A stretch of 54,079 bases of DNA from Girardia tigrina (taxonomy: Eukaryota): NCBI GenBank assembly GCA_001938485.1, contig MQRK01216488.1, forward strand, positions 1 through 54,079, written 5' to 3'. Of this stretch, positions 2,839-47,510 are shown one piece after another. Numbering within the stretch: position 1 is the first letter of the stretch; each line of letters begins with the position of its first letter. Below the pieces are notes generated by a model. That model worked only from the letters and a program-made list of their open reading frames with translations. It searched no databases and was not told where the DNA came from. A program made the translations under genes and the position numbers.

Positions 2839-3267
2839 TTATTTCGAAAAACATTTAACTACATTATCTATGCTCTTACGGAGACTTTGTCGTTTTCGTC
2901 TATTGACATAATCCTCTCCGCGATAATCCGCGATACACCATTGAGTGCCTAAGGTGCGCGACTCTTTCCCTTCGTCGACCCTTAACTTTTCCCTCATGCG
3001 AATCTGCAACTGCTCAGAGTATAATCGCTCGAGCTCTCGTATGCGACTCTCCATTGCTACGCCTCGTCTCACTACGCGAGCGTATTCATCAGGCTCGATG
3101 GAGGCTTCCTTAGTAACCTTTAACTTCATCGATAAGCGCTCCACACTATCTGGCAGATTCAATATTTCTTGGCGATCTGTTGCCCTGGCTTTCTTTAATA
3201 CTCTGTTCTCTTGCTGTAATTTCTCAATTGTTCTCTTAGCTTCTTGCAATTCTATTTCTTGTATCAT
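2839..3267 (-). CDS. Small coiled-coil protein of unknown function (probable retroelement accessory ORF)
   Basis: 142-aa ORF with E/K/R-rich heptads; TTTTAG immediately precedes the ATG; AATAAA overlaps the stop. Confidence 0.55.
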   Translation of the reverse strand: MIQEIELQEAKRTIEKLQQENRVLKKARATDRQEILNLPDSVERLSMKLKVTKEASIEPDEYARVVRRGVAMESRIRELERLYSEQLQIRMREKLRVDEGKESRTLGTQWCIADYRGEDYVNRRKRQSLRKSIDNVVKCFSK

Positions 3268-3667
3268 CTAAAATTATAACGGTTAAAATACGAGTTGTTG
3301 ATTTATTATTTAAGCCTTATTCTACGTGAGCGGTCATGAAAGATAGCAGTCGGATTCCGAAACTGCCTTCCGGTATGAATTCTTGAGCTTTGTTGTCACT
3401 CAGAGACTTCATAAACCGGGGAATTATTCTGGCCGCGCTAAAACGCATGCCGGAACCAGCCTTCAAGAATTTTAATGAAATGATTTTAGGTGTTGCCCTA
3501 CCCGAGGGTATTCGAGCTGAATTAAATCATAAAAAAAAATAAATTTTTGTGAAATATCTATAATTGTAAAATAAAATAGTTAGACATAATTAATAACAAC
3601 AAAAAGAAACATAATTAATAATCGGGTGACCGACCGCTTCGGTAAAATAAATTCAAATGTTCGGAAC

Positions 3668-3703
3668 CCGAGAGAGAAAGTAATCCATTACTTTCTCTCT
3701 CGG
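3668..3703. repeat. Perfect 17-bp inverted repeat (hairpin/cruciform)
   Basis: ccgagagagaaagtaat-cc-attactttctctctcgg. Confidence 0.9.
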
Positions 3704-6700
3704 ACGCGAAAATTCTAACAATACCAACCTAATAGATTTTTCCAAGAGTTGTCTCAAAATTAAGTGTTTTAGTGCGATTTTTAAATCTCAAATTTTAAGT
3801 GTGAATTTTGTCAAAAACTGTTCAGTATTTATACTAGGATTTCAGTCTAAAACTGTCGCGTGTTGAATCTTTATTGGTCCACGTCGAGTTCCAAAACGCT
3901 GGATCCAATTCTGTTAAAGCACGTCACTTCCAAATTTAGTGACTGCCAATTTTAGCAACTTTTAGAAAATCTGTATCATGATGATTCAGCGATTTTCTAA
4001 GTTTAAAAGTACGTTTGTTTTATTTTTTGTTTTAATTTTAGTAATTTTATCATTTTTTCCAGCCTGTTTCCGGACCTTCGGATTGCTCTTGTTTTACCAG
4101 ACCAAATGTATCCCATCGGTGACGATGTCCTGCGCGCGCACTTCAAACCGCGTTATCGGATTCCAACGCAAAGTAAGTTATATTCGCCTTTTCCGTTTGA
4201 CCTTTAACTTTTTATATATTTTAATTCGTTTTTTACCTCACGGAGCCAGCATAATGCATCGGCCCGCCTCTGTGACGATCCGGAGGAGAGTTGAGGATAT
4301 ATTTATTGATTATATTCATGTAAATTTGACTTTAACTCTTTCTGGAAATTTTTGATTTTTAGGTAAAATTTTCGATTTTATTTTTCAGAATTTTTGGTAA
4401 TTGTATCTCTCGTTAATCCTTACGTTAATTGATTATGCGTTTTGAATTATTTTATGATTTGGTTGATATTCGTTATGTGCGTAATTTCTTCGGATTTTAT
4501 TTTTCACCTCAATTTTCGTCGGATTTTCGTGCGGAGTTCGATTATTTCCGTTAATCTGTTTATTTCCGATTTTTGGTGATTTTTTCAGATTTTTTCCGCA
4601 TCTAATTCATTCTGTTTGATATATTTCCAATTTATAATTTATTGCGGCTTCGATGGATATTAATTATTATTATGTTTTTGCAGCTTTTTACGTCGCTCCA
4701 GATCGATTGGAATTTATTTCCGTGGCGTCCGCATAATATTGGACTCATTGATTGATTATTTTGAATGATTTTCGATTTAATTGATTTTTATGTTTCTTTT
4801 CCTATTTTTCTATTTTCGCTGCATATTTTTTCATGATTTCTATTCCATAATTTTTATCATAATTTTTACAAATTTTCTCTGCTCTGATCGATCGATTTTC
4901 ATTCATATTTACGTTTTTTGATCACAATATTGCAGTAAAATACAATTTTATTAATTTTCAATTATTTTCATTCGAAATCTTGATTGATTAGTATTGATTA
5001 TAATGTTTTCGCATCTTGTTGATTTTTCTACGATTTTTCCGATTATTTTATGAATTCGTCTTCATTTTGTGAGATTTTCATCGTTATTTCTCTATTTGGC
5101 GATGTTCCAATTTATACTATTTTGTATTGACTCGCTTATTTCTCTCATTTTTCGATGCGATGATCTTTTATTATCTGTTGGTGTTTTACGAGTATTTTCA
5201 TGATTTTTCCGACTATTTTACTCGTTTATTTCATCCAAAACCGTTAATTAATCGTTCTTTATTTATTATTTTTACTTCGATTTTGCTATTTTTCTGCGAA
5301 TTCTTAACGGATTTTCGTAATTTTTGTTTTGTTTTGCTCGTAAAATTATTTGGGAATTTGTCATTATTTTTGCGGATTTTTATCTATTCATTTGCGCGCG
5401 TTATTCTGATTTTATCGATTATTTGTCTGTAATTATTTACTGTTCCGCCAATATTTACACTTTTTATCCCATTTATATTCATTTTAGCACTTTTTATTGC
5501 TGATTTGTTACAATTCTTATGCTTTTTGTGTGATTTCTCTTGTTATGTTTTATACTAAATTTTGATTCTAACGCAACATATTCTACAAAATCTGAGAATG
5601 TTTTGATTTAAATATTCTGTGGTTATTAATCTATACAATTTTATATAACTTATATAATTTCCGGAACAAAAAGTGCTGAGTATTAGTTGAAGGACCAAAA
5701 TTTTGGTGATTAAGGAGAAGATTCTACTTATCGAGTCCTTTTGACAAATTGAAATGAATGTTGCGATTAAATTACTTAGCCGTTACGAATACAGTTATCA
5801 ACTTAAATTACACTCAAGATGATTTTGTTAATAAAAGATTAATTGAATAAAGCCTGACGTTATTAGAGTAATTGTACGATCAGTATTTTGACTTGTTTAA
5901 TAGTCATTCTACAAAAGTGGACTCTGAAATACCTCCAATGATTTATGTCCCTCTAAATCTGGGTCATTCTGTTTAGCCCATCTGAGTAGACGTGTTTCTT
6001 CTTTTATCTATTCTATACATTTTTCTAATGATGACCGAAACTCAATTTATAGAATGTAAAGATAAATAAAGATTACTTAAGAAACCATAAAAGGAAAATA
6101 AATTCGTATTACTGATAATGTCAGTTGTAACCTTTAATGAGTTATAACCATGCCCTGATACTCTAAAATAAAACTATATGTAACAAATTTAAAACTGTAA
6201 ATTTTAAATTTGAAGTTAAGGGATCTACACAGTGAACTAAAATCCAAAGAGGGACTACGGTCGAAAGTTAAAGAAAGGTAAACGTCTAATGAACAATTTA
6301 CGCTGATTCGGACAATCAATTTCAAAGATATCTAAGATATGATGTCAATATTGAAGCAAAGTTAAACTTCAGTAAAATATAAAATATAGTTATGTAAGTA
6401 AAAGATTAATGGCGAGAATGAAGAACTCTTCGGAGAAGGCGCGGGTTGACTGCAGCATGCAAGGGGCACGCGGTTCGATCGTCGCCTACTCCATTGGAGC
6501 ACTCTTCCTTCCATATAATTTAAAGTGAGAACTCGTGAGTAAAATTCATAACGACAAAATTAAATTATCAACCCCTCAGAAGCTGAGACTACCAGTCGGG
6601 CCATACTCGGTAACTGGTAGAGAACCAGAAGGCGCTCCGATGCGCACACAACTTGTTGATGTGAGCAAGAGGCGCGTTGGCTCCCCAAGCTTGAATCGAA

Positions 6701-17388: not shown

Positions 17389-18200
17389 TTAGGTAGAGTA
17401 ATAGTAATCTCTTGGTGTTAATTGATAGACATGATCTCTTGTAATGGATTTATTCTCTTTATGTAAGATTTTTCGATCAGATATAGATACCAAATTTCCA
17501 CTTTTTAAATCTAGAGAAACACCTTCTAATTGTTGCAAAACATCAATGCCAAGCAACAATGATTCTGGGCAACTTTTTGAAATTAATACATTTGTTGTAA
17601 TAGTCTTGCCACCAATTTTAATTGACACTTGTACAGTTCCTTCAATAGCGAGATAATGACCCGTAACTGATTGTAATCTTTCAATACAAGGTGCCAGATT
17701 TAATATTTCAGATGCCAGAAGCATCTTTTCATCGACAATTGTGACTGCTGAACCAGTATCAACTAAAGCTGTAATATATCTATCATTTAGTAAAACAGTT
17801 ATTGTTAATCTTTGACCGAATTTAGTTCTTACAGCAAAAACATAATTACTTGGTAAACCCCATTGATTTCTTATTTCCACTTCTCTTTTTTGTTTTTCCT
17901 CTGAATTTATAGTTTCATGATTTGGATCAACAGGTTTCATTTCTTTAAGTTGTAAGAATGGATAGTAATTCGGTAATGGTCGAAAACTTGTCATATTGAA
18001 TGGTGCACCTGAATTTAACATTTCTTGATTCTTTATCATTTGTAGTTGATTCTCGTAATCTTTACACTCGCTTTTAGATATTGTTGATGTCGTTAAATTA
18101 CTATTACTTACAGTTTCATTTCCCGTTTCACTTTTTCTTCCATCACTTGTTACACTTGGATCGCTGTTGGAACTATCTGAGACAGATTCAAATTGTACCT
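17389..18200 (-). pseudogene. LTR-retrotransposon retropepsin (aspartic protease) fragment
   Basis: ITALVDTGSAVTIV catalytic motif, LQSVTG flap and LLLGIDVL motif; the frame stays open upstream of 18039 to ~18200. Confidence 0.9.
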
Positions 18201-18688: not shown

Positions 18689-20254
18689 ATGATATTAATG
18701 ATGATAATGATGGTGTTTGAAGCATTACAAGGTGTAAATGCTATTGTCGCATATGATTGCGAGAAACCGAAATTCGGACAGAAATATTCTCTTCTCGATG
18801 TAGAAGAATGCACAGAAGCAAGTCCGATCAGTATTGAAACATTACCTGATAAAACATTAAATGTGTATCAGGAATCAGATGTTATATACACGGAAGCAAG
18901 AGAGTGTATAGTTAAATTTGTGGAAAGTGTATTCCATTGTGGAGGAACATTTGACACACCATTAAAACCCACTTATACTCCTGACCAAATGCAGATTTCG
19001 ACAAGTCAATGTGATGAAGCTTTTATCACAAAGAAAATCAAATTAGATGGAAAGGAAATGAATGTTCAAGTGGGAGCAATAGTGAAGGAAGCATTTAATA
19101 TAAAAGGATGGATATCCGGATCAGGACGATGTGCAGGAGAACCTGGTGAATTGTGGGGAAAGAAATGGCCAAATCTTGTCATAAGACGACAATATGTTGT
19201 GGGATTAAGAAAATTTGAAGCAGTATTTGATAGTGTCACAAGAAAAATGATGACACACCCATTTTGTATCGCAGACGATGATTTCTGCGACACTGGTGAA
19301 TCAATAATTTTATACAAAATAAATAAAAGAGAATGCCATTTAACCTTGTTAAAGACTACGAGTTTTAAAGAAATATCGGGATCAATGTTTAACAATAATG
19401 CTGAGGAAAATGTTCGTGATCAAAAAAGAGACAAAACAACAATAAAGAAATTGGCAACGCCAACAATTTATATTTCTGCTGATCCAAAGGATATGATGAA
19501 ATTTATACAAAAGGATCGAGTAGCTAAGTGTTATACTATGGTTTACGAAACTAATTATAAAGGGATATACATATCCACAACTGTAATTAAAGATAGTAAG
19601 GATAAAGTGAAAAAACAAGATGTTAATATAGTTACTTATTTTAATAATAAATTGGATTATTTATATCATACGTCATTACAAATGATATATAAATTGTATC
19701 ATGAAACAATAGCTGCAGATTGCAGGCTAAATAGACAAATTATACAATCAAAGATATCTTCAGCAACAGTCAATCCAGATATGATCACACCAATGTTGTT
19801 CAATGAAAAAGGATCATATGCCCGAGTAACTGGTGAAACGTTACAAGTCTTTAGCTGTACACCAGTACAAGTTTCAATAGCAATTACCGGAAAATGTACA
19901 AATGAAATGCCGGTCATGTATAAAGGGAAGCAAGTTTATATGTTACCTGTTACAAGAATATTAACAGATGAAAAATATATTCCCAAGGTAATAGAAAAAT
20001 GCACAAATATAGTGGATCCAGCTTACCAGATTGGAACGGATCATTGGATAACTGTATCAGATCGAAAAACGATAGCTACGCCCAAGAAGTTAGAATTGAT
20101 GACCTTGGAGAGAAAATTACAATTTACAGAATTTGACAAAATGGAGCAAAGTGGCTTATATTCACAACAAGCATTAGAAAGTGCCAGAAAATATGCACTA
20201 TTTCCCGTACAACGGGACAGGGTATTAACGATATACCGCAGAAAAGAACGCTAG
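18689..20254 (+). pseudogene. Chuvirus-like (class III, gB-related) envelope glycoprotein, C-terminally truncated
   Basis: Hydrophobic signal followed by AIVAYDC..YSLLDVEEC..ECIVK..HCG, C.L central helix, GETLQVFSCTPVQV, CTNEMPV..YMLPVTRIL; no C-terminal TM; compositional break at ~20230. Confidence 0.85.
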
Positions 20255-21714
20255 AAATTCAAGTTCTACGTGTAAAAGAACCAGATGAGGTAGACCAATT
20301 GAATGATATTTGGATATCCCAAGCAGCTGAAATTGGAGTTTTCGCTGTCGAATATTTTTTGGAGGACCACACACCAAATCCCTTATTAAACACGCAATAT
20401 CTTTCTATCATTTCTGACGTCGAAATTTCCAATCAAATAATAGCACAACGTGCTTCATTTTTACGCAGATCCTTAACACAATCAGAAATTCAATCCAGGC
20501 TTCGTTTTATGGACGCAGAATTTGGCATGGATGTGTACAAACGGCATCGACTCTTATCAGTCGCCATTCTCGATTATGATAAGCAGACCTTGTTGCACAC
20601 CCTAGTAAAACCCAGAGTCCGTATTAAGGATTTTTTAGAGCAATATCACGGAATTAAGGAGACTGACGTGACAGCTCAAATGGACGAGTATGATACCATT
20701 AATGCAATACATCGTCTTCTCGCGGGTAACATCCTGGTAGGACATGATGTCCAATTAGAACTGAAGGGATGCGCAATTCCGGTTCAAACCCTCTTGGGCA
20801 TACGTGATACCGCAGCCGCTCCCGTTTTCGATTCCTTTAATATTGATAAAAAAAGGTGACTTTTACTCCCTTAAAGTGTTGACCAGAACACTCTGCAACT
20901 TCGACATTCAAGGATCAAAGCACTCAGCCATAGAATATGCACGCGCAGTATGGCATGTCTATAAAAAAGTCGAGGACATATGGACCGACACAATCGATAT
21001 CCCAAAAGCAGTTACCTTCTTTGGCCAGGATACTCCCACAACTATACCCAAAGTAGAGATCCCCACGACCGCACCTCAAGTAGAGGACGATGCGCAATCA
21101 GTCACATCACAAAATTATTTACCCTCAATAACGGCGGGAACTTGGATCCAAGACAATATGTCGACACTCCAAGCTCATTCCATGACCAAAAAGGACGTAC
21201 CAACTCAGAACCATAATCATGAACCGCCTATCGTGCCTATCGTTTCTCCTAATCAAAAATATCAAAATGGCTTGGCGACGGTGTACCAGCAAAGCGTGCA
21301 TGTACACGCAATGAGTTGTTGAGAACCCATTTACCTATCGTTGATCTGGACGCTAGTTCAATATCATCGTATACGACAGCCCTCCCCGAACTCGATGAAG
21401 ACGAAGTCGACAACACTTTATTAGAGGAGGAGATCTTAGATATCAGCACTCCAGCTGATACAGAGATGAGTGAACTCCTAACCTTTCTTGCCGACGAGTC
21501 ACACGTCGAAGGCTTTCAATCCTTCTTAGATAAGCAATTTCAAATAGAAAAACTTGCGCCCCTAACAACGTCTTCTTTCGTGCATGCACGAAGCAAGCAC
21601 ACATTTACAATACATACACCGCATATAAATAACAAATTCGCAGGAGATACGATACCACCACCTCAGAACCCGATCCGGCCGAGACATTCGAAGAGGAGGT
21701 CCCAGATCAATTGA
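20230..21714 (+). pseudogene. REX4/ISG20-like DEDDh 3'-5' exonuclease with a low-complexity tail (frameshifted)
   Basis: FMDAEFG (ExoI), LVKP..I.D....HGI, ILVGHD, RDTA, SLKVL...DIQG.KHSAIEYARA (ExoIII Asp replaced by Tyr); frameshift in the A-run at ~20848-20855. Confidence 0.85.
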
Positions 21715-21784
21715 TGAATTGATGAACATTTGTGATCCTTTATGACCTTTATTATTTTGACTTTTGTTTTCTTTCCTTGATTGT

Positions 21785-22981
21785 TGTTATGAGGTCATAA
21801 CAAAAATGCCCCCCCCCACGAATGTTGAGAATGTAAATAGATTGTTTATTATTGATAATTGTAATTTTTTTATTATTTTGATTACTATTTCATTCATATG
21901 CTTACTAACAATATATTTTTTATTTTTTTGTTATATTTTGTTATTTTCAGTAAATAATAAGATTTATTATTTACTACCAAGGGTAATATTATTATTTATA
22001 TTTAAAGGAAAATAAGTAATATTATATTATTATTTATATTCAAAAGGAAAATATTATTATTTATAAAGAGAAAGAAGCAAGTGAGATTTAAAAAGGTCAA
22101 GAAAAAGTTTTAAATTAAAAGGTTGAAAATTCAAACCTACGACACTCAAACCTACGTTTTCAAAAAGAAACAAGCTCAACCTACGCTGATTCAAGAATGT
22201 ATAAAAGTAGAAGTAAAAAATCAATCTTGAACCATTAAGCAAAAAATCATTCTACTGAATCACTAGGCGAGAAGAAACAAATCTATTGAACCGTCAAGCG
22301 AGAAGCAAAAATCAATAACCAAGCAAGAAGCAAAAAAATCAATTGATCCGTTAAGTTGCTGAACAGAACTATTGTTCGAAGAATCCCATACGTCTGAATA
22401 ACTAGGCAAGAAACAAAAAAAATTCGATTGATCAGTCAAGTTACTGTACAGAATTATTGTTCGAGAATTCCATACGTCTGAAAAAGGAGGAGATTAAGGA
22501 GAATTCTTTGTCTATCAGTTGAATCAATAGGTTATTATAATTCATAAACTTTTAAAATCCTTAATTTTTATTTATATTAATAATTTCATTATACCTTGTA
22601 TTTATTTTAATTGGGATAAACCCGCACCCCAAATATTGAAGGCTCTGGACGAGAACCAGACCTTTAACGTAAATAGGGCATAAGTAGGGGGCTTATATAT
22701 TTCTATCTAACCTTTTGTTACAATCTGTTTGTAGATAAAAGATTATTTGTAATTGTTATAAATTTCAAAATATTATCGTACTAAATTAACTCGTCTTTTG
22801 ATTTGATTTGAATTTATTAAATACTAAATCGAATTAGTAATTGAGTATTTGATTAAATTTTATCGGTCGAAAACCTTATTTAATATCAATAACTGTTAGA
22901 TAACCCCTTTGTTAGGTATCGCCAGAGGGTTATATTAAAATTTAACCCCAGATAATCTAACACATTCATCTGGGAATAACA
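21785..22981. mobile_element. Putative LTR (~1.2 kb)
   Basis: TGTTAT...ATAACA termini, internal direct repeats at 22240-22480, abrupt junction into a Tc1 coding frame at 22982; no partner LTR, PBS or clear PPT seen. Confidence 0.4.
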
Positions 22982-23254
22982 ACCCCAAATCACTTGGAAA
23001 TTATGCAACTTCCTCCGTACTCCCCTTTCCTGAATCCGATCGAAGCGGTTTTCAGCAAGGTCAAACAAAGCGTCCGGAAGAGTANNNNNNNNNNNNNNNN
23101 NNNNNNNNNNNNNNNGCATCAGAAAGTGGAGTGCTTGGTCAACCTCATTACAACTGAGGTTGCGAAAGAGGAATACTCGAATTTATCGAAGTATTTTAAG
23201 CACATCAAGACATTTTTTCCGGAGTCACTTTTAAAAGAGGATGTCTTAGATTAA
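22982..23254 (+). pseudogene. Tc1/IS630-like transposase C-terminal fragment
   Basis: LPPYSPFLNPIEAVFSKVK motif. Confidence 0.9.
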
Positions 23255-24735
23255 ATGTTATTTTATTTAATAAATGTTATTTTATTTAATAAATGTTATT
23301 TTAAAAAGGTCTTATTATTTTTTTTAAAAAAATTTATAACTGATATATAAAAAATTATTATATAAAAAAATATTATATAAAATAAAATCCTTACTTCGCA
23401 TAAAATTAGCATAAAAAATGGATGACATAAGAGATGTTTATGTCATTGTACATAAGTCATCTGACATATATAAATGCCTTGTTGGCATAATAAAACAAGA
23501 ATAGGTGTAGACCTGATAAGCTTTTAGTACACAGTCGGTTTTCGATTTAACTGAGAAGCTTTGTACTTTAGAAGTGATCGACACGAATCTTATTTTGTTT
23601 TTATGAAGTTTTTCAACGCTCTGAAACCTTCTGAATATGGAATTTTAAGAATAATTTTGTGTTTATCAATTACGTCATTTTCTATTCGTTTTTGAGTGAT
23701 ATTCTGCATGTATATTTCATTTAGTGTGACCCTAATGTTTTCTTCAATTTGCTTATTTGTATACAAATTATTTCCGCACTCTTTAAGGCACTATAATGCA
23801 TTAATTAACATTCAAATTTGATAAAGTAAAGCCGCCTCAATTTGAAATATCTTTACTTAATTTAAAATTCAAAATTTAGAACCAATAATATCTCTAAAAT
23901 ATAATTAATTTATATTATGTTATCATTTATTACCAATTATCAGAAATTACATAATTCAATTAAAATCATTGATCAAACTATTTGTAAATAAAATAAAACT
24001 AACGTTCACGAGAATAAATATATTTATATACATAAATAAATTTTAGTGCGGTATCATGTCGAAGTACAGCCAAATAAAATAGATAAAAAATTCAAACTTG
24101 ATAATTGATGATTTTAACTGACAATCCATACAGTCACTCGTCTTTATCAAATATTGTCTGGTAACAACATGAAACTGTAATACAAAAGATTTACAAATGG
24201 AATTAATAATTAGATGCATTTAAACAAACCAGAAAAAATGTGTAATATTTCAGTTATTAATTTATAAAATTAATTGTGAGATTATTTAAATCAAAATTTT
24301 ATATTTAGATTTTATATCGTTAATAATTACCGAATATTTTACTAAATAATTTTTAATTTATCTGGTTAATTTAATACAAAAAAAGAAAAAAATAGATCTC
24401 TCTTAAATAATTTGTCCACAATTAACGGACATTATAGATGGGGTTTTTTGTAGAAATGTTCGATGTTGTAATTTTTTAAGTAGGCGAATAAATAATAAGA
24501 TTAGTTTTTTGTGTAAAAATATTTATTTAATAAAATCAATTTAAAAGCAGGTATTATAAAAATGGGCATTTTTAGGTCGATGGATTTAAAATTAAGAAAT
24601 TAATAAAGATTGTTCCTTTCATTCATAAAAAATATCGAGTTTTAAAAAATAGAAAATCATGACTTAGATATAATAAAAATAATTAAAATTAGTGTTGAAT
24701 CTCAGCAGAGTTTTTTACGTTTTCTTTATAAACTT

Positions 24736-25670
24736 TCAATTTGAGAGGTTTAATCGCATATTGGGAATCATAGCTCGATCGATATTAGCTGCAGTGATTG
24801 ACTTCATATGTCTGATATCCTTTGTCCAGAACAGAAATTGTCGATTGAGATTTGAATTTTGAGATATGACTTTGATTGGAGAACTGTCCAACGATTCATG
24901 GAGCTTTAATTGCGCAAGAACTCTATCGATTTCCACATCATCAGGATTGAAGAGACGTTCATCTGGTTCATCAATACTGTTAATTTTCATATTCTTATAT
25001 CGTTTTAATTTTAAAGAAAATGTTGGATCTGAGACGGTTTCAGCAGATCTCCACTCACAATGAATGTAAGAAAGTCCGCGATCTTTTAGAAAATATTTAT
25101 CAAATTCTATTTCCGAGTCTTTCGATATTACGTCTAATATGTCATAAACGTTTTCAATTTGCGATCCAAGAATCTTTTTAACAACTTTACGTTGATTTTC
25201 TAAATTTAGTTCAAAATTTGAATCATCATCACTATTTATTGTTTTGGCCAATTCATACAAAGTTGGTAAATCATTTATATTCATTATGAGATCAGGGAAC
25301 TCATCACTTATAACATCATTACTGAGTGGATGCATACCAGAGTTCACTTTGGCTTCCTGATCGATCAGATCTTCCGAGGTACTCGAATTCGATTCTCGGT
25401 GTTTCATCAATTTCTTTTGTTTAACATAGTCGAGGATACAGTCGACCGAAGCGCAGTTGTCGTAATTTGGGAATTGAAAAGACTTCGAAATATCTTTTTC
25501 GTTTAGTTTCTTCTCGGAACATCGATCTGATTTGTTCAGTTTTACTTTCATTGTCGGGCGGGAATTGTTATTTGATTGATTGATTCCCATTTTACTGGCG
25601 ATATTGTCGAGGTTCTCGGTGACATCGGGATCATTTGAATTGTCATTCGAATCGTTAGACACACCATTGT
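24736..25670 (-). pseudogene. CHD6-9/kismet-like remodeler fragment (first chromodomain and start of the second)
   Basis: VVKKILG...YFLKDRGLSYIHCEW...KLKRYK...LFNPDDVEIDRVL; no helicase domain follows. Confidence 0.75.
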
Positions 25671-38325: not shown

Positions 38326-39078
38326 TTAACGAGCTGCTCGAGGGGGAGAAGATGATCGAGGAGGAGGATAAGTAATAGCTTTATCAGTTAGTTTTAACTC
38401 TTTAATACTTCTTATTCCTATAACTAAATTAATTTTACAACCATTAAAATTAATTAAATTTCCATTTTGATCTTGTATTCTAAATTTGACCTCTGCATCA
38501 TCATTCCTACGCTCAAATTTGGCAAATATGGGATAATTTACTTCTTTAATATTTTTTTTCCCAAAAGAAATATCTTCTAAAGGAAAGGAATACAGAATGC
38601 CACTTTCTTGCAATGAATCACACCAAATATTTATCGTATCAACGGGATATATTTCTGGAAGTTTTACACCAATGTTAATACTATCTTTATAAACTTTCTC
38701 TTCAAAACCTAATAAGTTATAGAAACCATGTTTAAGATCAACTTGATAATTTGGAGAAAGTTTCATTATAACTCTGCCATTATAGGGTTGTATATAAAAT
38801 GATATTTTTCCTTCCCCAACTTCTTTGGCTATTTCAGAATTTAAATCTTTTAATTCATAAAATCCATTAGGTAGTTGAATAGCCAAAAATGTATCCCCAT
38901 TATCCGCAGAATATAGGAACAGATTATTTTCATCTGTAATATTATAAATTGTATTATAACAAGAAAACCAAACTACTCCAAACTCTGTATTATCCGGAAA
39001 CATAGTTCCTAGACGTAATTTTATTTTAAACTCTGATGAGTAAGTTGTTGTTTTGACTATGTCAGATGTCACGAACAT
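38326..39078 (-). CDS. Penton/minor capsid protein 2 (paralog)
   Basis: WFSCYNTIYNITDENN.F...PNGFYEL...ILYSFP...RIQDQNGNLINFNG, colinear with the adjacent penton. Confidence 0.85.
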   Translation of the reverse strand: MFVTSDIVKTTTYSSEFKIKLRLGTMFPDNTEFGVVWFSCYNTIYNITDENNLFLYSADNGDTFLAIQLPNGFYELKDLNSEIAKEVGEGKISFYIQPYNGRVIMKLSPNYQVDLKHGFYNLLGFEEKVYKDSINIGVKLPEIYPVDTINIWCDSLQESGILYSFPLEDISFGKKNIKEVNYPIFAKFERRNDDAEVKFRIQDQNGNLINFNGCKINLVIGIRSIKELKLTDKAITYPPPRSSSPPRAAR

Positions 39079-39094
39079 TTTCTTTCTTTAACAT

Positions 39095-39907
39095 CTATTT
39101 ATAATTTTTATCTAAAATCTTTTTATATTTTTCAGTTGTTATAATTTTTGTCTCTAATAATCTCTTCAAGATAGCATTTACTTGATTGTAAGTGTTGTCA
39201 TGTCCAGCTTTCTTCGCAGCTAATAACTTTCTCAACTCGATAAATAGTAAAATTGGATTATCTGGAAGATAGTGGATGTATTCTTTATCCTCAAGATCAT
39301 AACCATCGCCTTCAATTTCTTCAAATTGTACACCAGCTTTAATTTTAAGATGTTTATGATATTTTCCTGTATTTTCTTTTACTTTTGCATCTTTTAATAT
39401 TTGTAAATACTTCTTAATCTCTTCTTTATCTTCACTACCATGACCACCTATTAACTTCTTTAACTCATGTGTAAACGGGAATATGCCTTCTTTTCCATTA
39501 CTAATTCCATATTTTGATAGATTGATTATTTTAGGATTGTTTTCATCATCACCAGCTATCATATGTACAACACCATTAATTGTCATAGCATGGTTTCCTC
39601 CAACTTTATGAATAATGGGGCGTATAGTTGTTGGAAGATTCTCTAAGATTTCAAAATCTATGTTAAATGATTTATAACTATTTTGTCTTAAAAATTTATT
39701 TACTATCTCTTCTTTATTTTTGTCCAAAATTTGAAGTTGGTGAGGTGGATTAATACTTTCCATCTGATTAGTTGCTTCTTTTTTAATCTTTTCCATCTCA
39801 ACAACTGTATTAACTAAACCTAAATGTTGATTTGCTTTCTCCGTTTTTATTTCTTTTTGTTCCTTCACTAACTTTTTTAAATATTCTAATCTTTCTTCGA
39901 ACACCAT
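39095..39907 (-). CDS. Conserved Polinton PZ-like protein
   Basis: C-terminal LPDNPILLFIELRKLLAAKKAGH....NQVNAIL..L motif, preceded by IEGDG. Confidence 0.7.
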   Translation of the reverse strand: MVFEERLEYLKKLVKEQKEIKTEKANQHLGLVNTVVEMEKIKKEATNQMESINPPHQLQILDKNKEEIVNKFLRQNSYKSFNIDFEILENLPTTIRPIIHKVGGNHAMTINGVVHMIAGDDENNPKIINLSKYGISNGKEGIFPFTHELKKLIGGHGSEDKEEIKKYLQILKDAKVKENTGKYHKHLKIKAGVQFEEIEGDGYDLEDKEYIHYLPDNPILLFIELRKLLAAKKAGHDNTYNQVNAILKRLLETKIITTEKYKKILDKNYK

Positions 39908-39922
39908 TTTTTTATTTAAAAA

Positions 39923-40159
39923 ATGGAAAAAAATTCTGAAACTGAATATTATTCACAAGTAATTATATTTGAAGATGGCTCTCGTGGAAAAATATTAATC
40001 CCGAAAAGAGTAATTATGGATACATTAGCTAGTAGTGAAATTGACAAAATGTCCATAAATTCTGACTATATCGGTGTTTTTGATAAAGTTCAAGAACTTT
40101 TAAACGAAGAAACAAATTTATTAAAACAGATAACCGAAAATAAAACAATCATAATTTAA
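39923..40159 (+). CDS. Small hypothetical protein
   Basis: 78-aa ORF with the same TAAAAAATG start context as other element genes. Confidence 0.5.
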   Translation: MEKNSETEYYSQVIIFEDGSRGKILIPKRVIMDTLASSEIDKMSINSDYIGVFDKVQELLNEETNLLKQITENKTIII

Positions 40160-40346
40160 TAACTAAATTAAGTCATCATGCATTTGAATATTTTTGTTCG
40201 CTTGAGCCTATTGGGGATGAGAAATATAAGAAAGTTTTTAAAATGCTGCAAGAAACTTTAATGTTAGAATTAGAATTATTTAATAAATTCATCAAAGTTA
40301 AAGACGATAGTATGAAGATATTAGCATGTATAGATAGTGAACCTCC

Positions 40347-41135
40347 TCAATAACTAAAAATATCATTTCGAATAACTAGGTCACCTTCTCGGTTAAATGC
40401 GAGATATCCATACTTTTCTTGCCATACTTTTGTCAAATCATTAAATTCGTCCGCTTCAATTTCATTACTTAGTAAATCTGAATAGATTAAACTCTTGTCT
40501 TTTTTGTTCAATTTAAACAAAATTACATAGTTAGAGTTTGCTCTGATACTACGTTTGTCTAAATCGAACCAAGATTGTGAAAGATAAATGACATTTACAT
40601 TTTGATGGCGTCCTCTTGTGAAATATTTTTCCATAATATTTTGGTTTTTCTCATTTTTACAATCATCAAAAACTATTAAATTTTTCTTATTTTTCGGTAA
40701 CTTCTCTGGAGGAATGACGTCATTCACATTATCGAAAAACTTTACACTTATGTTCTCGTTATCGGGGTGTTTAATTGCATACTGTTCTACAACTTCTTCA
40801 ATCGAAATATTTTCATCTTTAAACAATGTTTCTTGATTTTCAAAGATATATCTTATAGATTTTTTACTTAAATTATTTTCAAAACCGTTAAAAACTATCT
40901 GATATTCAGGTTGTGACAATGTTTTACTGAATATTATTAAGTTGTTATAATCGAGAAAGTTGTCAGTTAATAACATTCTTAACAATAAATTAGTCTTTCC
41001 ACACCCTGATGAGCCAACGATTAGCATCCTAAAACAAGATGGCAAGTTAGGATGATGAGAAAATGTAATTTTATTCATCTTGAAAATTGGATTGAACGGC
41101 TTTACCCCTTTAGTTTCAGTGGAAAATAATGCCAT
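40347..41135 (-). CDS. A32/FtsK-like DNA packaging ATPase
   Basis: Walker A GSSGCGKT, Walker B LIVFDD, FTRGRH...YLSQ, IRAN. Confidence 0.95.
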   Translation of the reverse strand: MALFSTETKGVKPFNPIFKMNKITFSHHPNLPSCFRMLIVGSSGCGKTNLLLRMLLTDNFLDYNNLIIFSKTLSQPEYQIVFNGFENNLSKKSIRYIFENQETLFKDENISIEEVVEQYAIKHPDNENISVKFFDNVNDVIPPEKLPKNKKNLIVFDDCKNEKNQNIMEKYFTRGRHQNVNVIYLSQSWFDLDKRSIRANSNYVILFKLNKKDKSLIYSDLLSNEIEADEFNDLTKVWQEKYGYLAFNREGDLVIRNDIFSY

Positions 41136-41151
41136 TTTTATGCTTTAAAAA

Positions 41152-41340
41152 ATGGAAAACACGACAAATGTTTTAAATTATGAATTCGAAAAAGTCTTAT
41201 CAGTTTTTGACAAGTATTCAATAAAAATAAGTAGTGATGTTTTATTTTATAAAATAGTAAGTTTTGTATTATTTATGTGTTTTATTTTTAGTTTTTTATT
41301 TGTTTTCCGTAAAACTGACCAGCTTGCTTCATTCTTCTAA
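41152..41340 (+). CDS. Possible small membrane protein
   Basis: 62 aa with one hydrophobic stretch and TAAAAAATG context; the hydrophobic part overlaps the 3' end of the antisense ORF. Confidence 0.3.
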   Translation: MENTTNVLNYEFEKVLSVFDKYSIKISSDVLFYKIVSFVLFMCFIFSFLFVFRKTDQLASFF

Positions 41341-41674
41341 GTAATCGATTTTTAGAATCGTCACTGTTTACAATAATAGATTCTTGTTTCTTTATTGCTG
41401 AAATCTTTTGAATTTTCTCTAAGTTTGGAATTGAGATTAATTCTTTCATTTTACTGTTTTCTTCCTCTAAGACTTCTATTTCTTTATCCATAAATAAAAT
41501 TGTATTGGTTTGTTTCTCGACCACATCTCTTAATAAGAAAGCATCAACCATGTTTTGCTTTCCAATGATTTCCTTTGTCGCATAATTACATTTATTATAT
41601 TCTTCAAGTTTCAATTCTAAAGCTTCTTTATTTCCTTGATCTTCTTTAGCTTGATTATAAAGCTCGATTTCCAT
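41288..41674 (-). CDS. Coiled-coil hypothetical protein
   Basis: 128-aa ORF with the conserved start context. Confidence 0.6.
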   Translation of the reverse strand: MEIELYNQAKEDQGNKEALELKLEEYNKCNYATKEIIGKQNMVDAFLLRDVVEKQTNTILFMDKEIEVLEEENSKMKELISIPNLEKIQKISAIKKQESIIVNSDDSKNRLLRRMKQAGQFYGKQIKN

Positions 41675-41692
41675 TTTTTTAAGGAAAAAATA

Positions 41693-42202
41693 TTATAATT
41701 TGGAAGCTTCGAGTAAATCGCTTAGTTCACTAGGATTTTGAGTGAGCTGCTTTGTATTCTGAGCATTTATTCGTTGTTTATTTTGTATCGACTCGTTGTT
41801 GACTAAATGCCCACTTTTGTCCACTTGTGGCATTGAAGATATTTCAATCTGCTTTTTATATTCTGAATAAACATCGAGATGTTTTGCTCTTGTATGTGCC
41901 AACATTCCAGCTGTATTTTTGGAAACAAACTCACAACTACTGCACTTAGATGGTTTAAAGGATGTTTTTTGTTTTCTTTTCTTAAAGACTTCTTCATTTA
42001 TATCAGATGAATACCTTTGTAAAGTTCTCTCAGAAATATTTAGCTGTTTTGCTACTTCTTTCTTTGTAGTTTTTGGATTGTCTAATTTAATAGACAATGC
42101 TTTATCTAAAGTAGCAAGTTTGTAAAATGTATTTATTGACCTTGTGTCAACACCATTATAATTATTCATGGAATATTGTAAAAATGAAATGTTATTTGAC
42201 AT
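41693..42202 (-). CDS. HTH plus C2H2 zinc-finger DNA-binding protein
   Basis: TKKEVAKQLNISERTLQRY (HTH); CSSC...AHTRAKH (C2H2). Confidence 0.8.
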   Translation of the reverse strand: MSNNISFLQYSMNNYNGVDTRSINTFYKLATLDKALSIKLDNPKTTKKEVAKQLNISERTLQRYSSDINEEVFKKRKQKTSFKPSKCSSCEFVSKNTAGMLAHTRAKHLDVYSEYKKQIEISSMPQVDKSGHLVNNESIQNKQRINAQNTKQLTQNPSELSDLLEASKL

Positions 42203-42217
42203 TTTTAAAACAAAAAA

Positions 42218-42760
42218 TTAAATATTTTTATAAGGATTTAAAAATAATCCATCTCCGGAATGTTTAATTTCTATTCCACGCTTCAAATTTTTAAGAATTG
42301 TCTTAATGGTTTTCTTTTCTGGATTTTGAAGATTTGAAGTTTTTAAAATATTTCTCAAATAATCAGAGATTCCTCTTCCTTGATAAGGATCTAAAAATAA
42401 TCCCGATGCTGCTTTTTCTATTGTTCCAGATGTCCCAGATGTTCCAGATGTTCCAACTTTTTCTTTCAAACGTCGCAACTCTTCTTCAGCTAATTTTTTC
42501 TGAGCATCAGCTTTTTTACTCTCTTTTACAGATTGTACAACTCCAGCAACTCCTCCAGCTGCTCCAGCTGCTCCACCAACAACTGACATAATCAGAGGGA
42601 TTATTGCTGCTAATGGTAATATTCCTCCTTTTTCTTGTAAATGTTTTTTTATATGTGCAATTATCTTTTTCGAGATATAAACTCTTTTCCCATCTAAAGT
42701 TATAGCTTTTGGAACACCTGTTGCAATTATATTTTTTAACTCTTCTTCCAAATTCGACAT
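42218..42760 (-). CDS. Virion core/membrane-lytic precursor (adenovirus pVI/pX-like, cupiennin-type)
   Basis: KGG followed by amphipathic ILPLAAIIPLIMSVVGGAAG; two GLFL.PY motifs. Confidence 0.7.
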   Translation of the reverse strand: MSNLEEELKNIIATGVPKAITLDGKRVYISKKIIAHIKKHLQEKGGILPLAAIIPLIMSVVGGAAGAAGGVAGVVQSVKESKKADAQKKLAEEELRRLKEKVGTSGTSGTSGTIEKAASGLFLDPYQGRGISDYLRNILKTSNLQNPEKKTIKTILKNLKRGIEIKHSGDGLFLNPYKNI

Positions 42761-42825
42761 TTTATTCCTTTTTAAAGTAAAAAATTTAAAGATATTTTAA
42801 AATTTTTTTATTAAAAAATAAGAAA

Positions 42826-44136
42826 ATGGAAGAAGATTTATCACAGAGGCAATTGTTTAATTTGGACAGAACTTTAAATTTTCTCCACGATTTAAAGAAA
42901 GAAGATTATTTAAGAGTTGCTGCTAGTGTAGATTCTTCAACAAATTTAAATAAGAATGGTGATATAAAGTTTCAAATTAATCAAACAAGTAATCCTTTAA
43001 ATTTAGGAGCAGAATTCTTTTATTACAAGATTAAACTATCAGGATTTGTTGTAGACTCGACTGTAACTTTAGAAAACAATTTTTTCCCGAGAATGTTTGA
43101 AAATATGAGATTACAATTAGGATCAGCAGAAATTGAAAACATAGGAAATTGTGGAGAATTTTCAAGTATGTTAAATTTTGTAATGTTAGACAAACCAACA
43201 GTTGAAACATATGGAGAATCGATAGGATGGATACCGGATACAGGTAAAGGAAGTGAGAAGAATCCTAATTTTGCTATAAGAAAAGAATTATATCAAGGTG
43301 ATGGAAAACTGAAAGCTGATACATCTTATTCATTCGATGGAAGATTCCCATTAAATACTTTGTTTGGATTCTTAGAAAATTATAATAGAGTTGTATTTTT
43401 GTTACCTATCAATATTATTTTAAATAGAAGGTTAAATGATGAAGATATTTTATATGGAACTGGAACAGGAGCTGGTGCAGATGCAAAGAAACCAACAGGA
43501 AAAGTTGAAATAGAATCATTAGAGCTATGGATTCCGGAATTAACTGTTAATCCAAGAAGTGAGGTAACTTTATTGGAAAGATTGAATAAAGATAAACCTA
43601 TCTCTGTAAATTTTCTAAATAGAAATGGAACCACAAATGAACTTTCAGCTGGAAGTACAAATATAAGTTGGAAAGTAAGTTTAACAAATTCTAGACCGAG
43701 ATATGTTTTAGTAGCTTTCAAAGATTTAACTACTTCAATTGAGAAAAATAATTCCTTGTTTATTCAAAAAGATGGAGCTAATACTATAACAAGTTTAAGA
43801 GTTCAGATTAATAACTCTTACTATCCTATAAATAAGATGGAGTTTGACGCTGTAGGAAATAAACAGATGGAACCGTATTTAGCTTATGTGAAAATGTGTA
43901 AAGAATTTAATGTTTTGCCACAGTTAAATATTAGAGATTTTAAAAATTTATACTCAATTTTCTGTTTTGATGTTTCTGCTCAAAATGAAAAACTTTCTGT
44001 AAATGGTTGTGATATCACAGTTCACATTACAAAATCAACTGATTTTAAAGCAAAAGCATATTGTTTAATTTTAGAAGAGAAACATTGTCAGATACAAACA
44101 AAGAATGGAAAGATGTTTACTGTTGAAATGATTTAA
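42826..44136 (+). CDS. Major capsid protein (double jelly-roll)
   Basis: 436 aa, intact; IESLELWIP, RPRYVLVAF, LRVQINNSYYP, FKNLYSIFCFDVS motifs of Polinton MCPs. Confidence 0.88.
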   Translation: MEEDLSQRQLFNLDRTLNFLHDLKKEDYLRVAASVDSSTNLNKNGDIKFQINQTSNPLNLGAEFFYYKIKLSGFVVDSTVTLENNFFPRMFENMRLQLGSAEIENIGNCGEFSSMLNFVMLDKPTVETYGESIGWIPDTGKGSEKNPNFAIRKELYQGDGKLKADTSYSFDGRFPLNTLFGFLENYNRVVFLLPINIILNRRLNDEDILYGTGTGAGADAKKPTGKVEIESLELWIPELTVNPRSEVTLLERLNKDKPISVNFLNRNGTTNELSAGSTNISWKVSLTNSRPRYVLVAFKDLTTSIEKNNSLFIQKDGANTITSLRVQINNSYYPINKMEFDAVGNKQMEPYLAYVKMCKEFNVLPQLNIRDFKNLYSIFCFDVSAQNEKLSVNGCDITVHITKSTDFKAKAYCLILEEKHCQIQTKNGKMFTVEMI

Positions 44137-44211
44137 AAAGTATGAGTAAAACGATGAGAAAACGATGAGGCAAAAAAAGTGATGAGAAAACGATGATTTC
44201 AAACACAAAAA

Positions 44212-45516
44212 TTACGATTTTTGTAATTCATTTGTATAAAATCTTCCTAATATTTTTTCTCCATTTAAATCAATAATCGAATAAACTATAGGATTTGTTT
44301 TATGAACTTCACTTATAACAAACACCTCTTTAGACCACTTATGGGTAAAACCTTTTTCAAATTTGTTTTTCCATTTAAAAATTCTAACATGATCACCAAT
44401 TTTAAATTTTGGAATATCTTTTTGGATTTCTTCTTTATTTTCTTCTTTGATCACATCAGGATTATCAGATGCTTCTTCAGGAGAAACTCCTATTGTTCTG
44501 TGGATTTTATGGTTGTAAAAATTTAACACTTTAGGTAATATTTTTAACCATTTTTGATTTCCTTGCATTGTAAACTCTTTCCACATAAAATTTTTTAAAG
44601 TTTTATTAAATCTTTCTATAACAGGATTATGTGATGGACCTTGACTTCTTTCATCGGGTTGATTAAAAGTTGAATAGATTTCTATCTTGTTTTGCTTTAA
44701 GAAGTCTAAAAATGTTTTGTTGTAAAATTCTGATCCGTGATCAACGTATAATTTTTTAGGAATTCTTTCTTCTTCAAATAAAATTTCAAAAGTATTTTTA
44801 ATCGCATTTCCTGTTTTATTTTTTAAAGGGAAAGCCCATGCGTATTTTGTATATAAATCTATAATTGTTAAAATGTATTTATAATCTTCATCTTTTTTCA
44901 TTTCAACTAAATCCGCTCCCCAAATATCATCTTTGTTAAAAACTTTAACTTTTAAAAATGTTTTAGGTTTTCTATATTCTTTATGTAATTCTTGTGTAAG
45001 ACGAAGTCTATTCCCTTCCGAGGAAGCCAGAAGTTCATTTTTATTTTCATTTTCATTAGATATTTCACCACCAAACATAATTTTTAATTTCATAGCATTT
45101 TTGACAAGTGTTCTTGCAATTCTTTCTCCAAATGTTGGCTTTTTAATTTCGTTTAAATCCTGAATTAAATCAATATCCGCCTTTTGCCTTGAACGAATAT
45201 CTTCGTTGTTATAAGCAATATCATGTTTTAAACATGCATTATCAACACGATTTATTGGTTCTTCTCCAGGATTTGGTTGATTATTCCCATCTAATCTGAT
45301 GTCTAAACGTGTTCCAGGTCCTGCATAAGCATAGCCCGGAAGATGATGTTCTCCTTTATATTTAGACCATGGAAAGTCTGGTAACTTTTTTGAAATTGTT
45401 TGAAGGTCTCCTCCTTTTGGAGAAAGACTTAAATGTTTTTTAGTTTGTTCGTGCCTAACTTTATTAGCTTTTGAAACAAATTTTCCACATATTGTACAGA
45501 AATGATTATTACTCAT
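44212..45516 (-). CDS. C2H2 finger - parvovirus-type phospholipase A2 - retroviral-like (rve) integrase fusion
   Basis: CTIC..HEQTKKH; HLPGYAYAGPGT..DNACLKHDIAY..AD; WGADLVEM, YVDHGSEFYN, VIERFNKTLK; one uninterrupted ORF; no chromodomain. Confidence 0.92.
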   Translation of the reverse strand: MSNNHFCTICGKFVSKANKVRHEQTKKHLSLSPKGGDLQTISKKLPDFPWSKYKGEHHLPGYAYAGPGTRLDIRLDGNNQPNPGEEPINRVDNACLKHDIAYNNEDIRSRQKADIDLIQDLNEIKKPTFGERIARTLVKNAMKLKIMFGGEISNENENKNELLASSEGNRLRLTQELHKEYRKPKTFLKVKVFNKDDIWGADLVEMKKDEDYKYILTIIDLYTKYAWAFPLKNKTGNAIKNTFEILFEEERIPKKLYVDHGSEFYNKTFLDFLKQNKIEIYSTFNQPDERSQGPSHNPVIERFNKTLKNFMWKEFTMQGNQKWLKILPKVLNFYNHKIHRTIGVSPEEASDNPDVIKEENKEEIQKDIPKFKIGDHVRIFKWKNKFEKGFTHKWSKEVFVISEVHKTNPIVYSIIDLNGEKILGRFYTNELQKS

Positions 45517-45789
45517 TTTTTAATTCATTAAAATAATAAAAATAGATTTATATATTTATTTACAAATACTCTTAGCTGCATATTCAGCGATTAAATTATT
45601 TCGAACTGCTTTATCAATATCTTTGGAAAGTTTCATTACTTGATTCTGATGTCGCACAGTAGCAAGAAACATTCTTTATTTTATAATCGCCATATTTTTT
45701 ACAATTCCTTTTTTAATTTGAAAAATAAGTTTATGTTTTTACTAATAACCCATTCCCATGCTGTGGGAATCTATAAATAGTAACATATA

Positions 45790-45987
45790 TTAGATCTCTT
45801 TTAAACAAGTAGAACATCTCCATATATCTTTACTACAATCACAATCCTTGTAACATCCAACACCCCAATTTGAACCTGAACAATCTTTACCTAATTTAAT
45901 CACAGTACATAAAGTTTCTTTCTTACAAAAACCACAATACACTTCATTTTGAAAACCTACACCAAATACATTCTGATTAGTATTCAT
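45790..45987 (-). CDS. Small Cys-rich (putative Zn-ribbon) protein
   Basis: 65 aa with CGFC, C...CDC and CSTC; TAAATG start. Confidence 0.5.
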   Translation of the reverse strand: MNTNQNVFGVGFQNEVYCGFCKKETLCTVIKLGKDCSGSNWGVGCYKDCDCSKDIWRCSTCLKEI

Positions 45988-46031
45988 TTATTTTTTATCA
46001 TATTTTTTGATAAATCCTTGTGTTAAATTTC

Positions 46032-46130
46032 GCTAAAATTGCTAAAATTGCTAAAATTGCTAAAATTGTTAAAATTGTTAAAATTGTTAAAATTGTTAAA
46101 ATTGGTAAAATTGTTAAAATTGTTAAAATC
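46032..46130. repeat. 9-bp tandem repeat, 11 copies
   Basis: gctaaaatt x4 followed by gttaaaatt-type x7. Confidence 0.95.
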
Positions 46131-46242
46131 GTAGCAGTAGTAATAGTAGCCTTCGAACAGACGCACCAAATCTGAGTAGTAAGGAAATGGCAGACATAAG
46201 CCAATATGAATTTCATGGGTTTTTTGGCAAAATTTTGACAAA

Positions 46243-46934
46243 TTTTACAGATTTTAAAAAATTAAATTTTTCACTAAAAAGTCAGTTTTTTTTGAAAATT
46301 TTTATTTTTTGAAAAGTTGTATTTTTGGGGTAATTTTGGTGAAATTTCATTATTTTTAGAGACTTAAGAAAATTTTAATTTTTTTAAATTTTCTATAAAT
46401 GAGATGGAAAATGGATTAAAATGTGTGATTTCTAGAAATTTTAAATTTTTTTATTTTTTTTCATATCATTTTTACCAGTTTTTAGCAATTTTTACAGATT
46501 TTAAAAAATTAAATTTTTCCCTAAAAAAGTCAGTTTTTTTGAAAATTTTTATTTTTTGAAAAGTTGTATTTTTTAGGGTAATTTTGGTGAAATTTGAACA
46601 TTTTATTGGAGTTAAGAAATTTTGAATTTTTAGTAATTTCCTATGAATGAGATGAAAAAAGGATTAAAATGTGTGATTTCTAGAAATTTTAAATTTTTTT
46701 ATTTTTTTATAAGTTGTCCGGAGTAGTATAAAAAGGGGGGACTCTAGATCCACAGCGAATGAGTGAGTTTCGAGGGGCTTTGAGGGAGGTTTGAGGAGCG
46801 AGCGACGAAAAACCGGACGAAAAGACACCGAAACGAACGAAATGAGCGGTTTTTTCGGCCTTGAGGCGCGAGCGAAGCGAGCGACGAAAAGGTCGAAAAA
46901 AGTTGGGTCTAGAGTCCCCCCTTTTTATACTACT
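46243..46934 (-). repeat. Right TIR with a tandemly duplicated ~220-245 bp subterminal unit
   Basis: 46243-46460 resembles 46490-46710; terminal cassette at 46722-46934. Confidence 0.88.
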
Positions 46935-47510
46935 ATGGAAGGACATGGAAGAAATTTAACCTGGTCTCTATTGAGACAGAAATAATTTGGCTCAACAGAG
47001 GAACAGAGTTAGGTAAAATTACAAACTGGTGGGCGAAAATAAATTTTGTATTACAAAATATTCAGACTGCACCAAATCAAGATAGAGTTGTTGCAAAATG
47101 AACACGGTATCTGTGTAAATGTACACTAGAGTCTAGATTGGGAGAGACGACTTACTAACGGAGAAACAGATATAATAAGGGTTAACACCGATGAACATTT
47201 ACTGCAAAAGTCGATGCTCAACAAAAGTGTGTCCATGACACTTAGAAGGTTTGTAGAAAAGTAATGGACACACAAATGGCTTAAGTGGAGCGATGCCGGG
47301 GGATTTGCAAGAAGTCTATTCTCCTTGGTTAATTTTCACGATGTAGTATATGACGGAGGGCTTAAATACACTGAATGGTACTTTGTTCACAAAACAATAA
47401 CATGCACAGTGCCCATCAACTACCAACCTGGTGTTCGTATTAATTGCTGACACTGTAGAAGATGTTCACAGAAGAAAGAAACTGGGCGCACGTCTTGACC
47501 GAGTGCCCTA
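46935..47510 (+). pseudogene. Degenerate R2/NeSL-type non-LTR retrotransposon, right half (CCHC knuckle)
   Basis: CRRCSQKKET/AHVLTEC at 47454-47506 with a 1-nt frameshift; colinear with the GGLG half left of the Polinton. Confidence 0.65.

Follow-up and report, generated by a model that had tools for sequence, protein, structure and literature searches.

Why does each end of a Polinton/Maverick element in Girardia tigrina carry a second, inverted copy of its own tip? The element occupies positions 28085-46934 (18.85 kb) of the window, which is the whole 54,079-nucleotide stretch of DNA that was analysed.

Host element

The element is a Polinton/Maverick, with a protein-primed family B polymerase (pPolB), an integrase, a capsid protein, a packaging ATPase, terminal inverted repeats (TIRs), and a 6-bp target site duplication (TSD). 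Both ends read AGTAGT, or (AGT)2, and the same TSD, ATGGAA, is present on each side. Feature coordinates are listed in Table 1. The N-terminal pieces of the polymerase gene gave a zinc finger only, with no OTU match, in a Pfam scan at E 0.001. Two adjacent, similar genes (37421-38149 and 38326-39078) have no Pfam match, both match the same regions in relatives, and are probably minor capsid (penton) paralogues. A 9-bp tandem array is located at 46016-46150, between the integrase gene and the right TIR.

Several other features lie outside the element. A Monjiviricetes-type fusion glycoprotein gene (18689-20254; PF24664, E 1.3e-60) is adjoined on the opposite strand by a retroviral-type aspartyl protease (17389-18039), and together the two genes probably represent an LTR retrotransposon that has captured an envelope gene. 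Upstream of the Polinton is a cis-prenyltransferase fragment (25866-26414; PF01255), probably an exon of a host gene. The DNA targeted by the Polinton insertion (46935-47300) is a many-variant repeat in the host.

Table 1. Features of the Polinton/Maverick element and its two ends, in window positions.
Feature	Position	Strand	Basis or remark
Left TSD, ATGGAA	28079-28084	+	Identical to 46935-46940
Left outer terminal arm with AGTAGT end and one additional G	28085-28112	+	Alignment to right end
Left unit interior, two CGCTTCGCTC motif copies, in right-unit orientation	28113-28281	+	Alignment
Left inner inverted copy, first part, one substitution	28282-28303	-	Alignment
Secondary insertion at TA	28304-29439		1136 bp, 26-bp TIRs, TA duplicated, N-gap 28419-29327 inside
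Left inner copy, last part, last base differs	29442-29446	-	Alignment
Left TIR inner part, AT-rich	29447-29694	+	80-84% match to 46207-46728, reverse strand
Protein-primed family B polymerase gene, four open frames	29766-34146	+	PF03175 E 1.5e-10, last piece
Adenovirus-like protease, probable	36989-37402	-	Weak Peptidase_C39 match below cut-off; matches in relatives
A32-like packaging ATPase	40347-41135	-	PF04665 E 1.1e-9
Double jelly-roll major capsid protein	42826-44136	+	PF21738 E 6.2e-29
PLA2-domain and rve integrase fusion	44212-45516	-	PF08398; PF00665 E 8.7e-14
Right TIR inner part, AT-rich, about 248-bp tandem duplication	46207-46721		TIR counterpart of 29440-29694
Right inner inverted copy of 27-bp terminus	46722-46748	+	Alignment
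Right unit interior, GC-rich, internal stems	46749-46907	+	Fold
GAGCGAAGCG motif	46870-46879	+	GCGAAGC (46872-46878) predicted as apical GNA tri-loop when the 3'-terminal strand folds
Right outer terminal arm, true element end	46908-46934	-	Alignment
Right TSD, ATGGAA	46935-46940	+	Identical to left TSD

Structure of the terminal units

The right end is a 213-bp unit in which 46722-46748 is the exact reverse complement of 46908-46934. The inverted copy reported in a first-pass annotation of this DNA is exact at all 27 positions, and the pairing extends to 30 of 31 positions with one G-T pair. A scan of the window for inverted repeats (16 bp or longer, GC of 25% or more, span of 700 or less) gave five matches, and the right-end pair is the sole exact short-range inverted repeat of at least 27 bp. 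The score of the terminus against its inner copy was reached by none of 200 shuffles. The 213-nt strand has a predicted fold of -53.5 kcal/mol (z -9.6; 0/200 shuffles as good), and the opposite strand folds at -40.8. These predicted single-strand folds support the suggestion that each end can fold back on itself.

As had been described, the left end is built likewise, and it lies in the same orientation. Its inner copy is split by a transposon and carries 2 substitutions in 27 nucleotides. From its TA duplication and CAGGGTG ends, we take the 28304-29439 insertion to be Tc1/mariner-like. Without this insertion the left unit is 224 bp long and not 213, because it differs from the right unit by indels of 9, 1, and 1 bp. 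Within the window the GCTCGCTTCGCTCGC motif is confined to the two units, with two copies in the left (28138 and 28217) and one in the right (46868, minus strand). Since there is one inner repeat per TIR, the element contains four copies of its terminus, the number first described, one of them broken.

The description of the unit as self-contained did not hold. The TIR runs about 250-500 bp further inward (AT-rich repeats, 29440-29694 against 46207-46728) for a total of about 0.5-0.7 kb, and ATGGAA flanks the element, not the unit. The sequences on the two sides of the unit, GTCCGG and ATGGAA, differ. No TSD therefore belongs to the unit itself, and its origin as a separate insertion was dropped for this reason. 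Because the TIR continues past the inner copy, the unit lacks a TSD, and both ends have the same orientation, the unit is best described as the outer part of the TIR.

Occurrence in other Polintons

Other Polinton TIRs were surveyed for inner copies of the terminus, and some of them carry one. Eleven other elements with testable ends were obtained from integrase-alignment scans and fetched regions. Together with the window element, 5 of 12 elements and 6 of 16 ends carry the inner inverted copy, and at each positive end 0/200 shuffles reach the score. The positive elements are the window element, three elements of bin G001 (E1, E2, and E3), and L019. Their units range from 119 to 690 bp and are otherwise unrelated in sequence.

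E1 (19044-36328, TSD GAAATT) has units of 596 and 690 bp in the same orientation at both ends, with an exact 86-bp arm at the right end. In E2 the unit is 663 bp long and its arms measure about 98 bp. E3 ends in a 364-bp near-complete palindrome, and L019 has a 119-bp unit at the start of its contig; both are almost wholly palindromic. E1-E3 are on one contig (G001:C3), and the ends of E2, E3, and L019 were assigned without a TSD.

No inner copy was found at 10 ends of seven elements, which are L027 and six G002 elements. L027 lacks it despite AGTAGT ends and a PLA2 integrase. The six G002 elements belong to two families that are more distant; their ends lack TSD confirmation, and some are ragged. 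These elements come from 33 contigs examined, of which seven have paired TIRs and six were tested (C382 was left out). As seven related elements do without it, the inner copy is dispensable.

L013, with 73% integrase identity, starts inside an apparent unit with a variant of the motif and an inner ATACTACT; it lacks the outer arm and is not counted among the 12 elements. L166, L167, L202, and other short contigs with no definable end were likewise left out.

In the integrase tree, the window element, E1/E2, and L019 fall on three separate branches of an unresolved part, and L027 is on another; E3 was left out of the tree. Compared with the window element, the E1 integrase is 33% identical along its full length, and the integrase cores of E1, E2, and L019 are 37-46% identical. 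E1 and L019 encode pPolB. In five units, from three branches, the inner copy stops at the terminal motif.

Broader scans added no further units. A terminal-motif palindrome scan gave 47 matches in 4558 motif starts, mostly duplicates of the five units or host palindromes, and a second scan gave one in 1121, which is the L084 repeat. The L084 palindrome was rejected as a Polinton end, as it is a high-copy repeat in G002 (149 matches). L001 and L002, which match the terminus pattern, have no Polinton genes and were rejected as relatives. No relatives were found by single-protein scans of viral contigs or by a capsid alignment scan, the phage collection gave no match, and Rfam gave one chance match below the gathering score.

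Other features of these sequences were recorded. The ends of E2 and E3 (L087, 17899 and 10861) read ACTACT and not AGTAGT, in outer and inner copies alike; ACTACT is not among the three end-motif types given in the available text of PMC8097293. Contig G001:C3 (L085/L087-L089) holds three Polintons, one nested in the TIR of another. Bins G001 and G002 are titled as bacterial MAGs yet contain Polinton-rich, eukaryotic-looking DNA, and G002 has about 45 strong integrase matches. Two G002 Polintons (C30 1001-23886 and C77 2501-25350) end in GGGTAATG and carry subterminal tandem repeats of 53 bp; a 6-bp TSD is not visible in them.

The fold-back design is a recurrent, real structure and not a quirk of the window copy. 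No inversion of its interior was seen. Left and right interiors are concordant in the window, in E1, and in the surviving part of E2, which are the 3 of 3 elements with two comparable ends, and strand-changing joints number 0 of the 8 listed from 946 host contigs. The terminal flip-flop proposed earlier is therefore not seen in these elements. Because host contigs are short and drop rare variants, rare flips could still occur. Rare solo or flipped copies may also exist elsewhere in the host genome.

Concerted change of the arms and the interior motif

Between elements, only 1-9 leading bases of the arms agree, with 7-16 matches among the first 30. Within an element, they match at 90-100% over the first 20-80 bases. 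The two copies in an element therefore change together. Arm identity peaks at the tip and decays inward in all five units.

Host contigs show a similar pairing of changes. From two runs, 423 and 523 contigs were placed on 46470-47300 at 80% likeness; a third run (X3), from another organism, gave no coverage of the unit. The inner arm has G in place of C at 46742 in most of the host depth (9022/13751 and 9272/12479), and three host contigs have C in place of G at 46914, its pairing partner. This swap is seen at the level of the family, and the two changes were not seen together on one molecule. The inner copy is thus a family-level feature kept in step with the outer copy, and to this extent the suggestion that it could serve end repair is retained.

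In three of the five units (window, E1, and E2), the GAGCGAAGCG motif is carried by the strand that has its 3' end at the element tip, and the core of the motif is predicted to form an apical tri-loop. GCGAAGC is an unusually stable DNA mini-hairpin. The motif is absent from E3, which has other C-GNA-G loops, and from L019, which has none. In other loci, which partly overlap and total about 1.63 Mb, there is a single occurrence of the GNA tri-loop motif. Because GAGCGAAGCG is also found in bacterial and phage DNA unrelated to Polintons, it is suggestive only. The folding advantage of the 3'-terminal strand is large in only two of the five elements, and G-T wobble pairs show no bias toward it (17 against 13). 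The available text of PMC5449611 describes GNA loops that contain sheared G:A pairs.

Further copies of the GAGCGAAGCGAGCGACG motif are found in DNA of bacteria and phages (L154, L156-L163, and L155 at 2741-3026), with two copies within 260 bp in L155. L154-L163, found as motif pattern matches, have no Polinton genes and were rejected as relatives.

Proposed role of the inner copy

The preferred reading, given a probability of about 0.5, is that the unit is a fold-back terminus, in which a single-stranded end would form a panhandle locally, giving back a duplex origin and providing a spare copy of the tip. A Polinton strand would be single-stranded when excised or when displaced during protein-primed replication, and its end would pair with the inner inverted copy 0.1-0.7 kb away. 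The panhandle would act as a duplex origin for the polymerase and terminal protein, so that the two ends, 18 kb apart, need not meet, and it would also shield the tip. The inner copy could serve as a template for recopying or correcting a damaged tip, which would keep the two arms identical. Initiation would still be protein-primed at the 3-bp repeat end, and for that reason the interior would not be flipped.

Such a local panhandle would account for the concerted arms, their inward decay, the kept 3-bp end repeats, and the absence of flips. We infer both its formation in vivo and its role. The window element keeps the 3-bp end repeats and a pPolB gene. Repeats of this kind are used for jump-back priming (PMC8097293, available sections), and panhandle origins are treated in the available part of PMC4046053. 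In the accepted model, as given in the accessible text of PMC4196379, a single-stranded Polinton pairs its two TIRs and is copied by protein priming. Fold-back telomere repair in Streptomyces offers, by analogy, a precedent in another terminal-protein system. The functions first suggested for the cassette are kept in part: fold-back, and an inner copy that fits end repair or origin regeneration, were retained, and flip-flop and mobilisation as a MITE were not.

Alternative explanations

Rather unlikely is a parvovirus-like mechanism, in which the folded 3' end primes the second strand and a nick at the inner copy, made by the integrase or another nuclease, regenerates the end. The predicted geometry fits, as pairing with the inner copy leaves the 3' end flush and directed into the element. 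The terminal stem and inward-pairing 3' end of a parvovirus-type hairpin are thus present here in the predicted fold, and the almost wholly palindromic E3 and L019 favour the same reading. We also presume a likeness to parvovirus/AAV ends in the outer stem with small inner hairpins and in GAGC-like repeats that resemble a Rep-binding element. Symmetric hairpin transfer inverts the interior in AAV biology, but 0 of 3 elements with two comparable ends are inverted, no strand-changing joint is among those listed, and Pfam detected no Rep/HUH domain, and hence no such nickase, in the 16 element proteins. Left-right concordance is a weak test because the TIRs are homogenised, and single-orientation resolution occurs in some parvoviruses. 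The same model has been proposed for the terminal palindromes of Halocafeteria virophages and PLV, but in the available text of that preprint (10.64898/2026.07.28.741278) these palindromes are mostly with non-pPolB elements, and the present elements encode pPolB.

A self-priming terminal hairpin in a broad subset of animal Polintons, with the end regenerated by a single-orientation cut at the inner copy, is judged rather unlikely. If true, a protein-primed-type polymerase would be combined with parvovirus-like hairpin ends, a replication mode that has no description for Polintons in the literature searched.

An unlikely explanation is that the unit is a neutral by-product, with template switching occasionally making an end palindrome and in-stem recombination keeping the arms alike without benefit. 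Its patchy occurrence (5/12 elements), the variation in size (119-690 bp), the inward decay of the arms, and the disrupted left inner copy of the window element agree with this. The left disruption can, however, postdate integration, and the ending of the inner copy at the terminal motif in five units on three branches, together with a tri-loop motif on the same strand in three units, argues against a by-product.

Very unlikely is a role for the inner copy while the DNA is double-stranded, in which the integrase or terminal protein would bind or cut it as an additional site during excision or synapsis. The end is reproduced exactly and inverted in both TIRs, but arms of 80-100 bp in E1, E2, and E3 are longer than a binding site needs, and cutting should leave unit-less elements or solo units, none of which were seen in the window, G001, or the host contigs.

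Mobilisation of the unit alone by the Polinton integrase, as a MITE, is highly improbable: the unit has two correctly facing ends, and summed contig depth in run X2, which is not copy number, is 10,000-43,500 over the unit against 2,000-6,400 over 46470-46637, but no TSD belongs to the unit itself, the window and bin G001 gave no solo copies, contig depth does not fall at the inner boundary (46722) and stays high over 46666-46721, about 55 bp inward, and there is no loose end at 46722 among those listed, with 258 further loose ends beyond these.

Significance

Polinton replication has so far had only a model that pairs the far-apart ends of one strand, and a conserved, concertedly evolving inner copy of the tip points to a local alternative to it. 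The inner-copy design may show how Polintons copy and repair their tips. The units are short, defined DNA substrates with clear predictions (flipped against unflipped, hairpin against protein-blocked ends). Annotators may take ends of this kind for MITEs, and calling of the element end may become ambiguous.

Comparison with known systems

Animal Polinton/Mavericks, as described in the available text of PMC8097293 (Barreat and Katzourakis 2021) and 10.1101/2023.08.22.554363 (Jeong et al.), share with the window element a 6-bp TSD, an (AGT)2 end, a TIR of several hundred bp, and the pPolB, integrase, ATPase, and capsid genes. The vertebrate Maverick end motif and TSD in PMC8097293 match those of the window element. 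A partial match is also seen to Alpha adintovirus (PMC8502044, available text), which shares a pfam03175-type PolB and a PLA2-like gene; both are present in the window element, where the PLA2 domain is fused to the integrase. Alpha adintoviruses are further described by an OTU domain at the N terminus of PolB and a pX-like tail on PLA2X.

Palindromes and hairpins have no occurrence in the available text of PMC8097293 and 10.1101/2023.08.22.554363, and no spaced inner copy of the terminus is described in the available sections of these two papers, PMC8363768, PMC8547959, PMC11296320, and PMC4061559. No description of such a copy in Polintons was found in the literature searched; the founding papers and Repbase, outside its scope, might note it. 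The standard Polinton model (racket or panhandle), as far as the available sources describe it, pairs the left TIR with the right TIR, whereas here each end can also pair with itself. Bidnavirus ITRs are Polinton-derived and do not form such hairpins (PMC4061559, available part), and some casposon TIRs contain internal palindromes (PMC4046053, available part).

The nearest prior report is the 2026 preprint on protist virophage/PLV palindromes (10.64898/2026.07.28.741278). In its available text, Halocafeteria virophages/PLV of subtype 4 likewise have a self-complementary TIR tip beside the TSD, for which hairpin priming is proposed. The Halocafeteria palindromes are tight (52 nt in subtype 5; search gap limit of 10), come from a protist, and are mostly found with non-pPolB replicases. 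The present units, in contrast, have arms that enclose a structured interior of 28-520 bp and occur in pPolB-encoding elements.

Streptomyces telomeres, in the available text of PMC5449611, are likewise the ends of a terminal-protein replicon in which the 3' strand tip pairs with an internal copy, with GNA loops and repair on a fold-back template. They differ in being bacterial, without a family B polymerase, confined to end-patching, and without homology to the present units. The repair described there used a short terminal hairpin, and the longer-range pairing of the same telomeres would be the closer analogue of the units described here.
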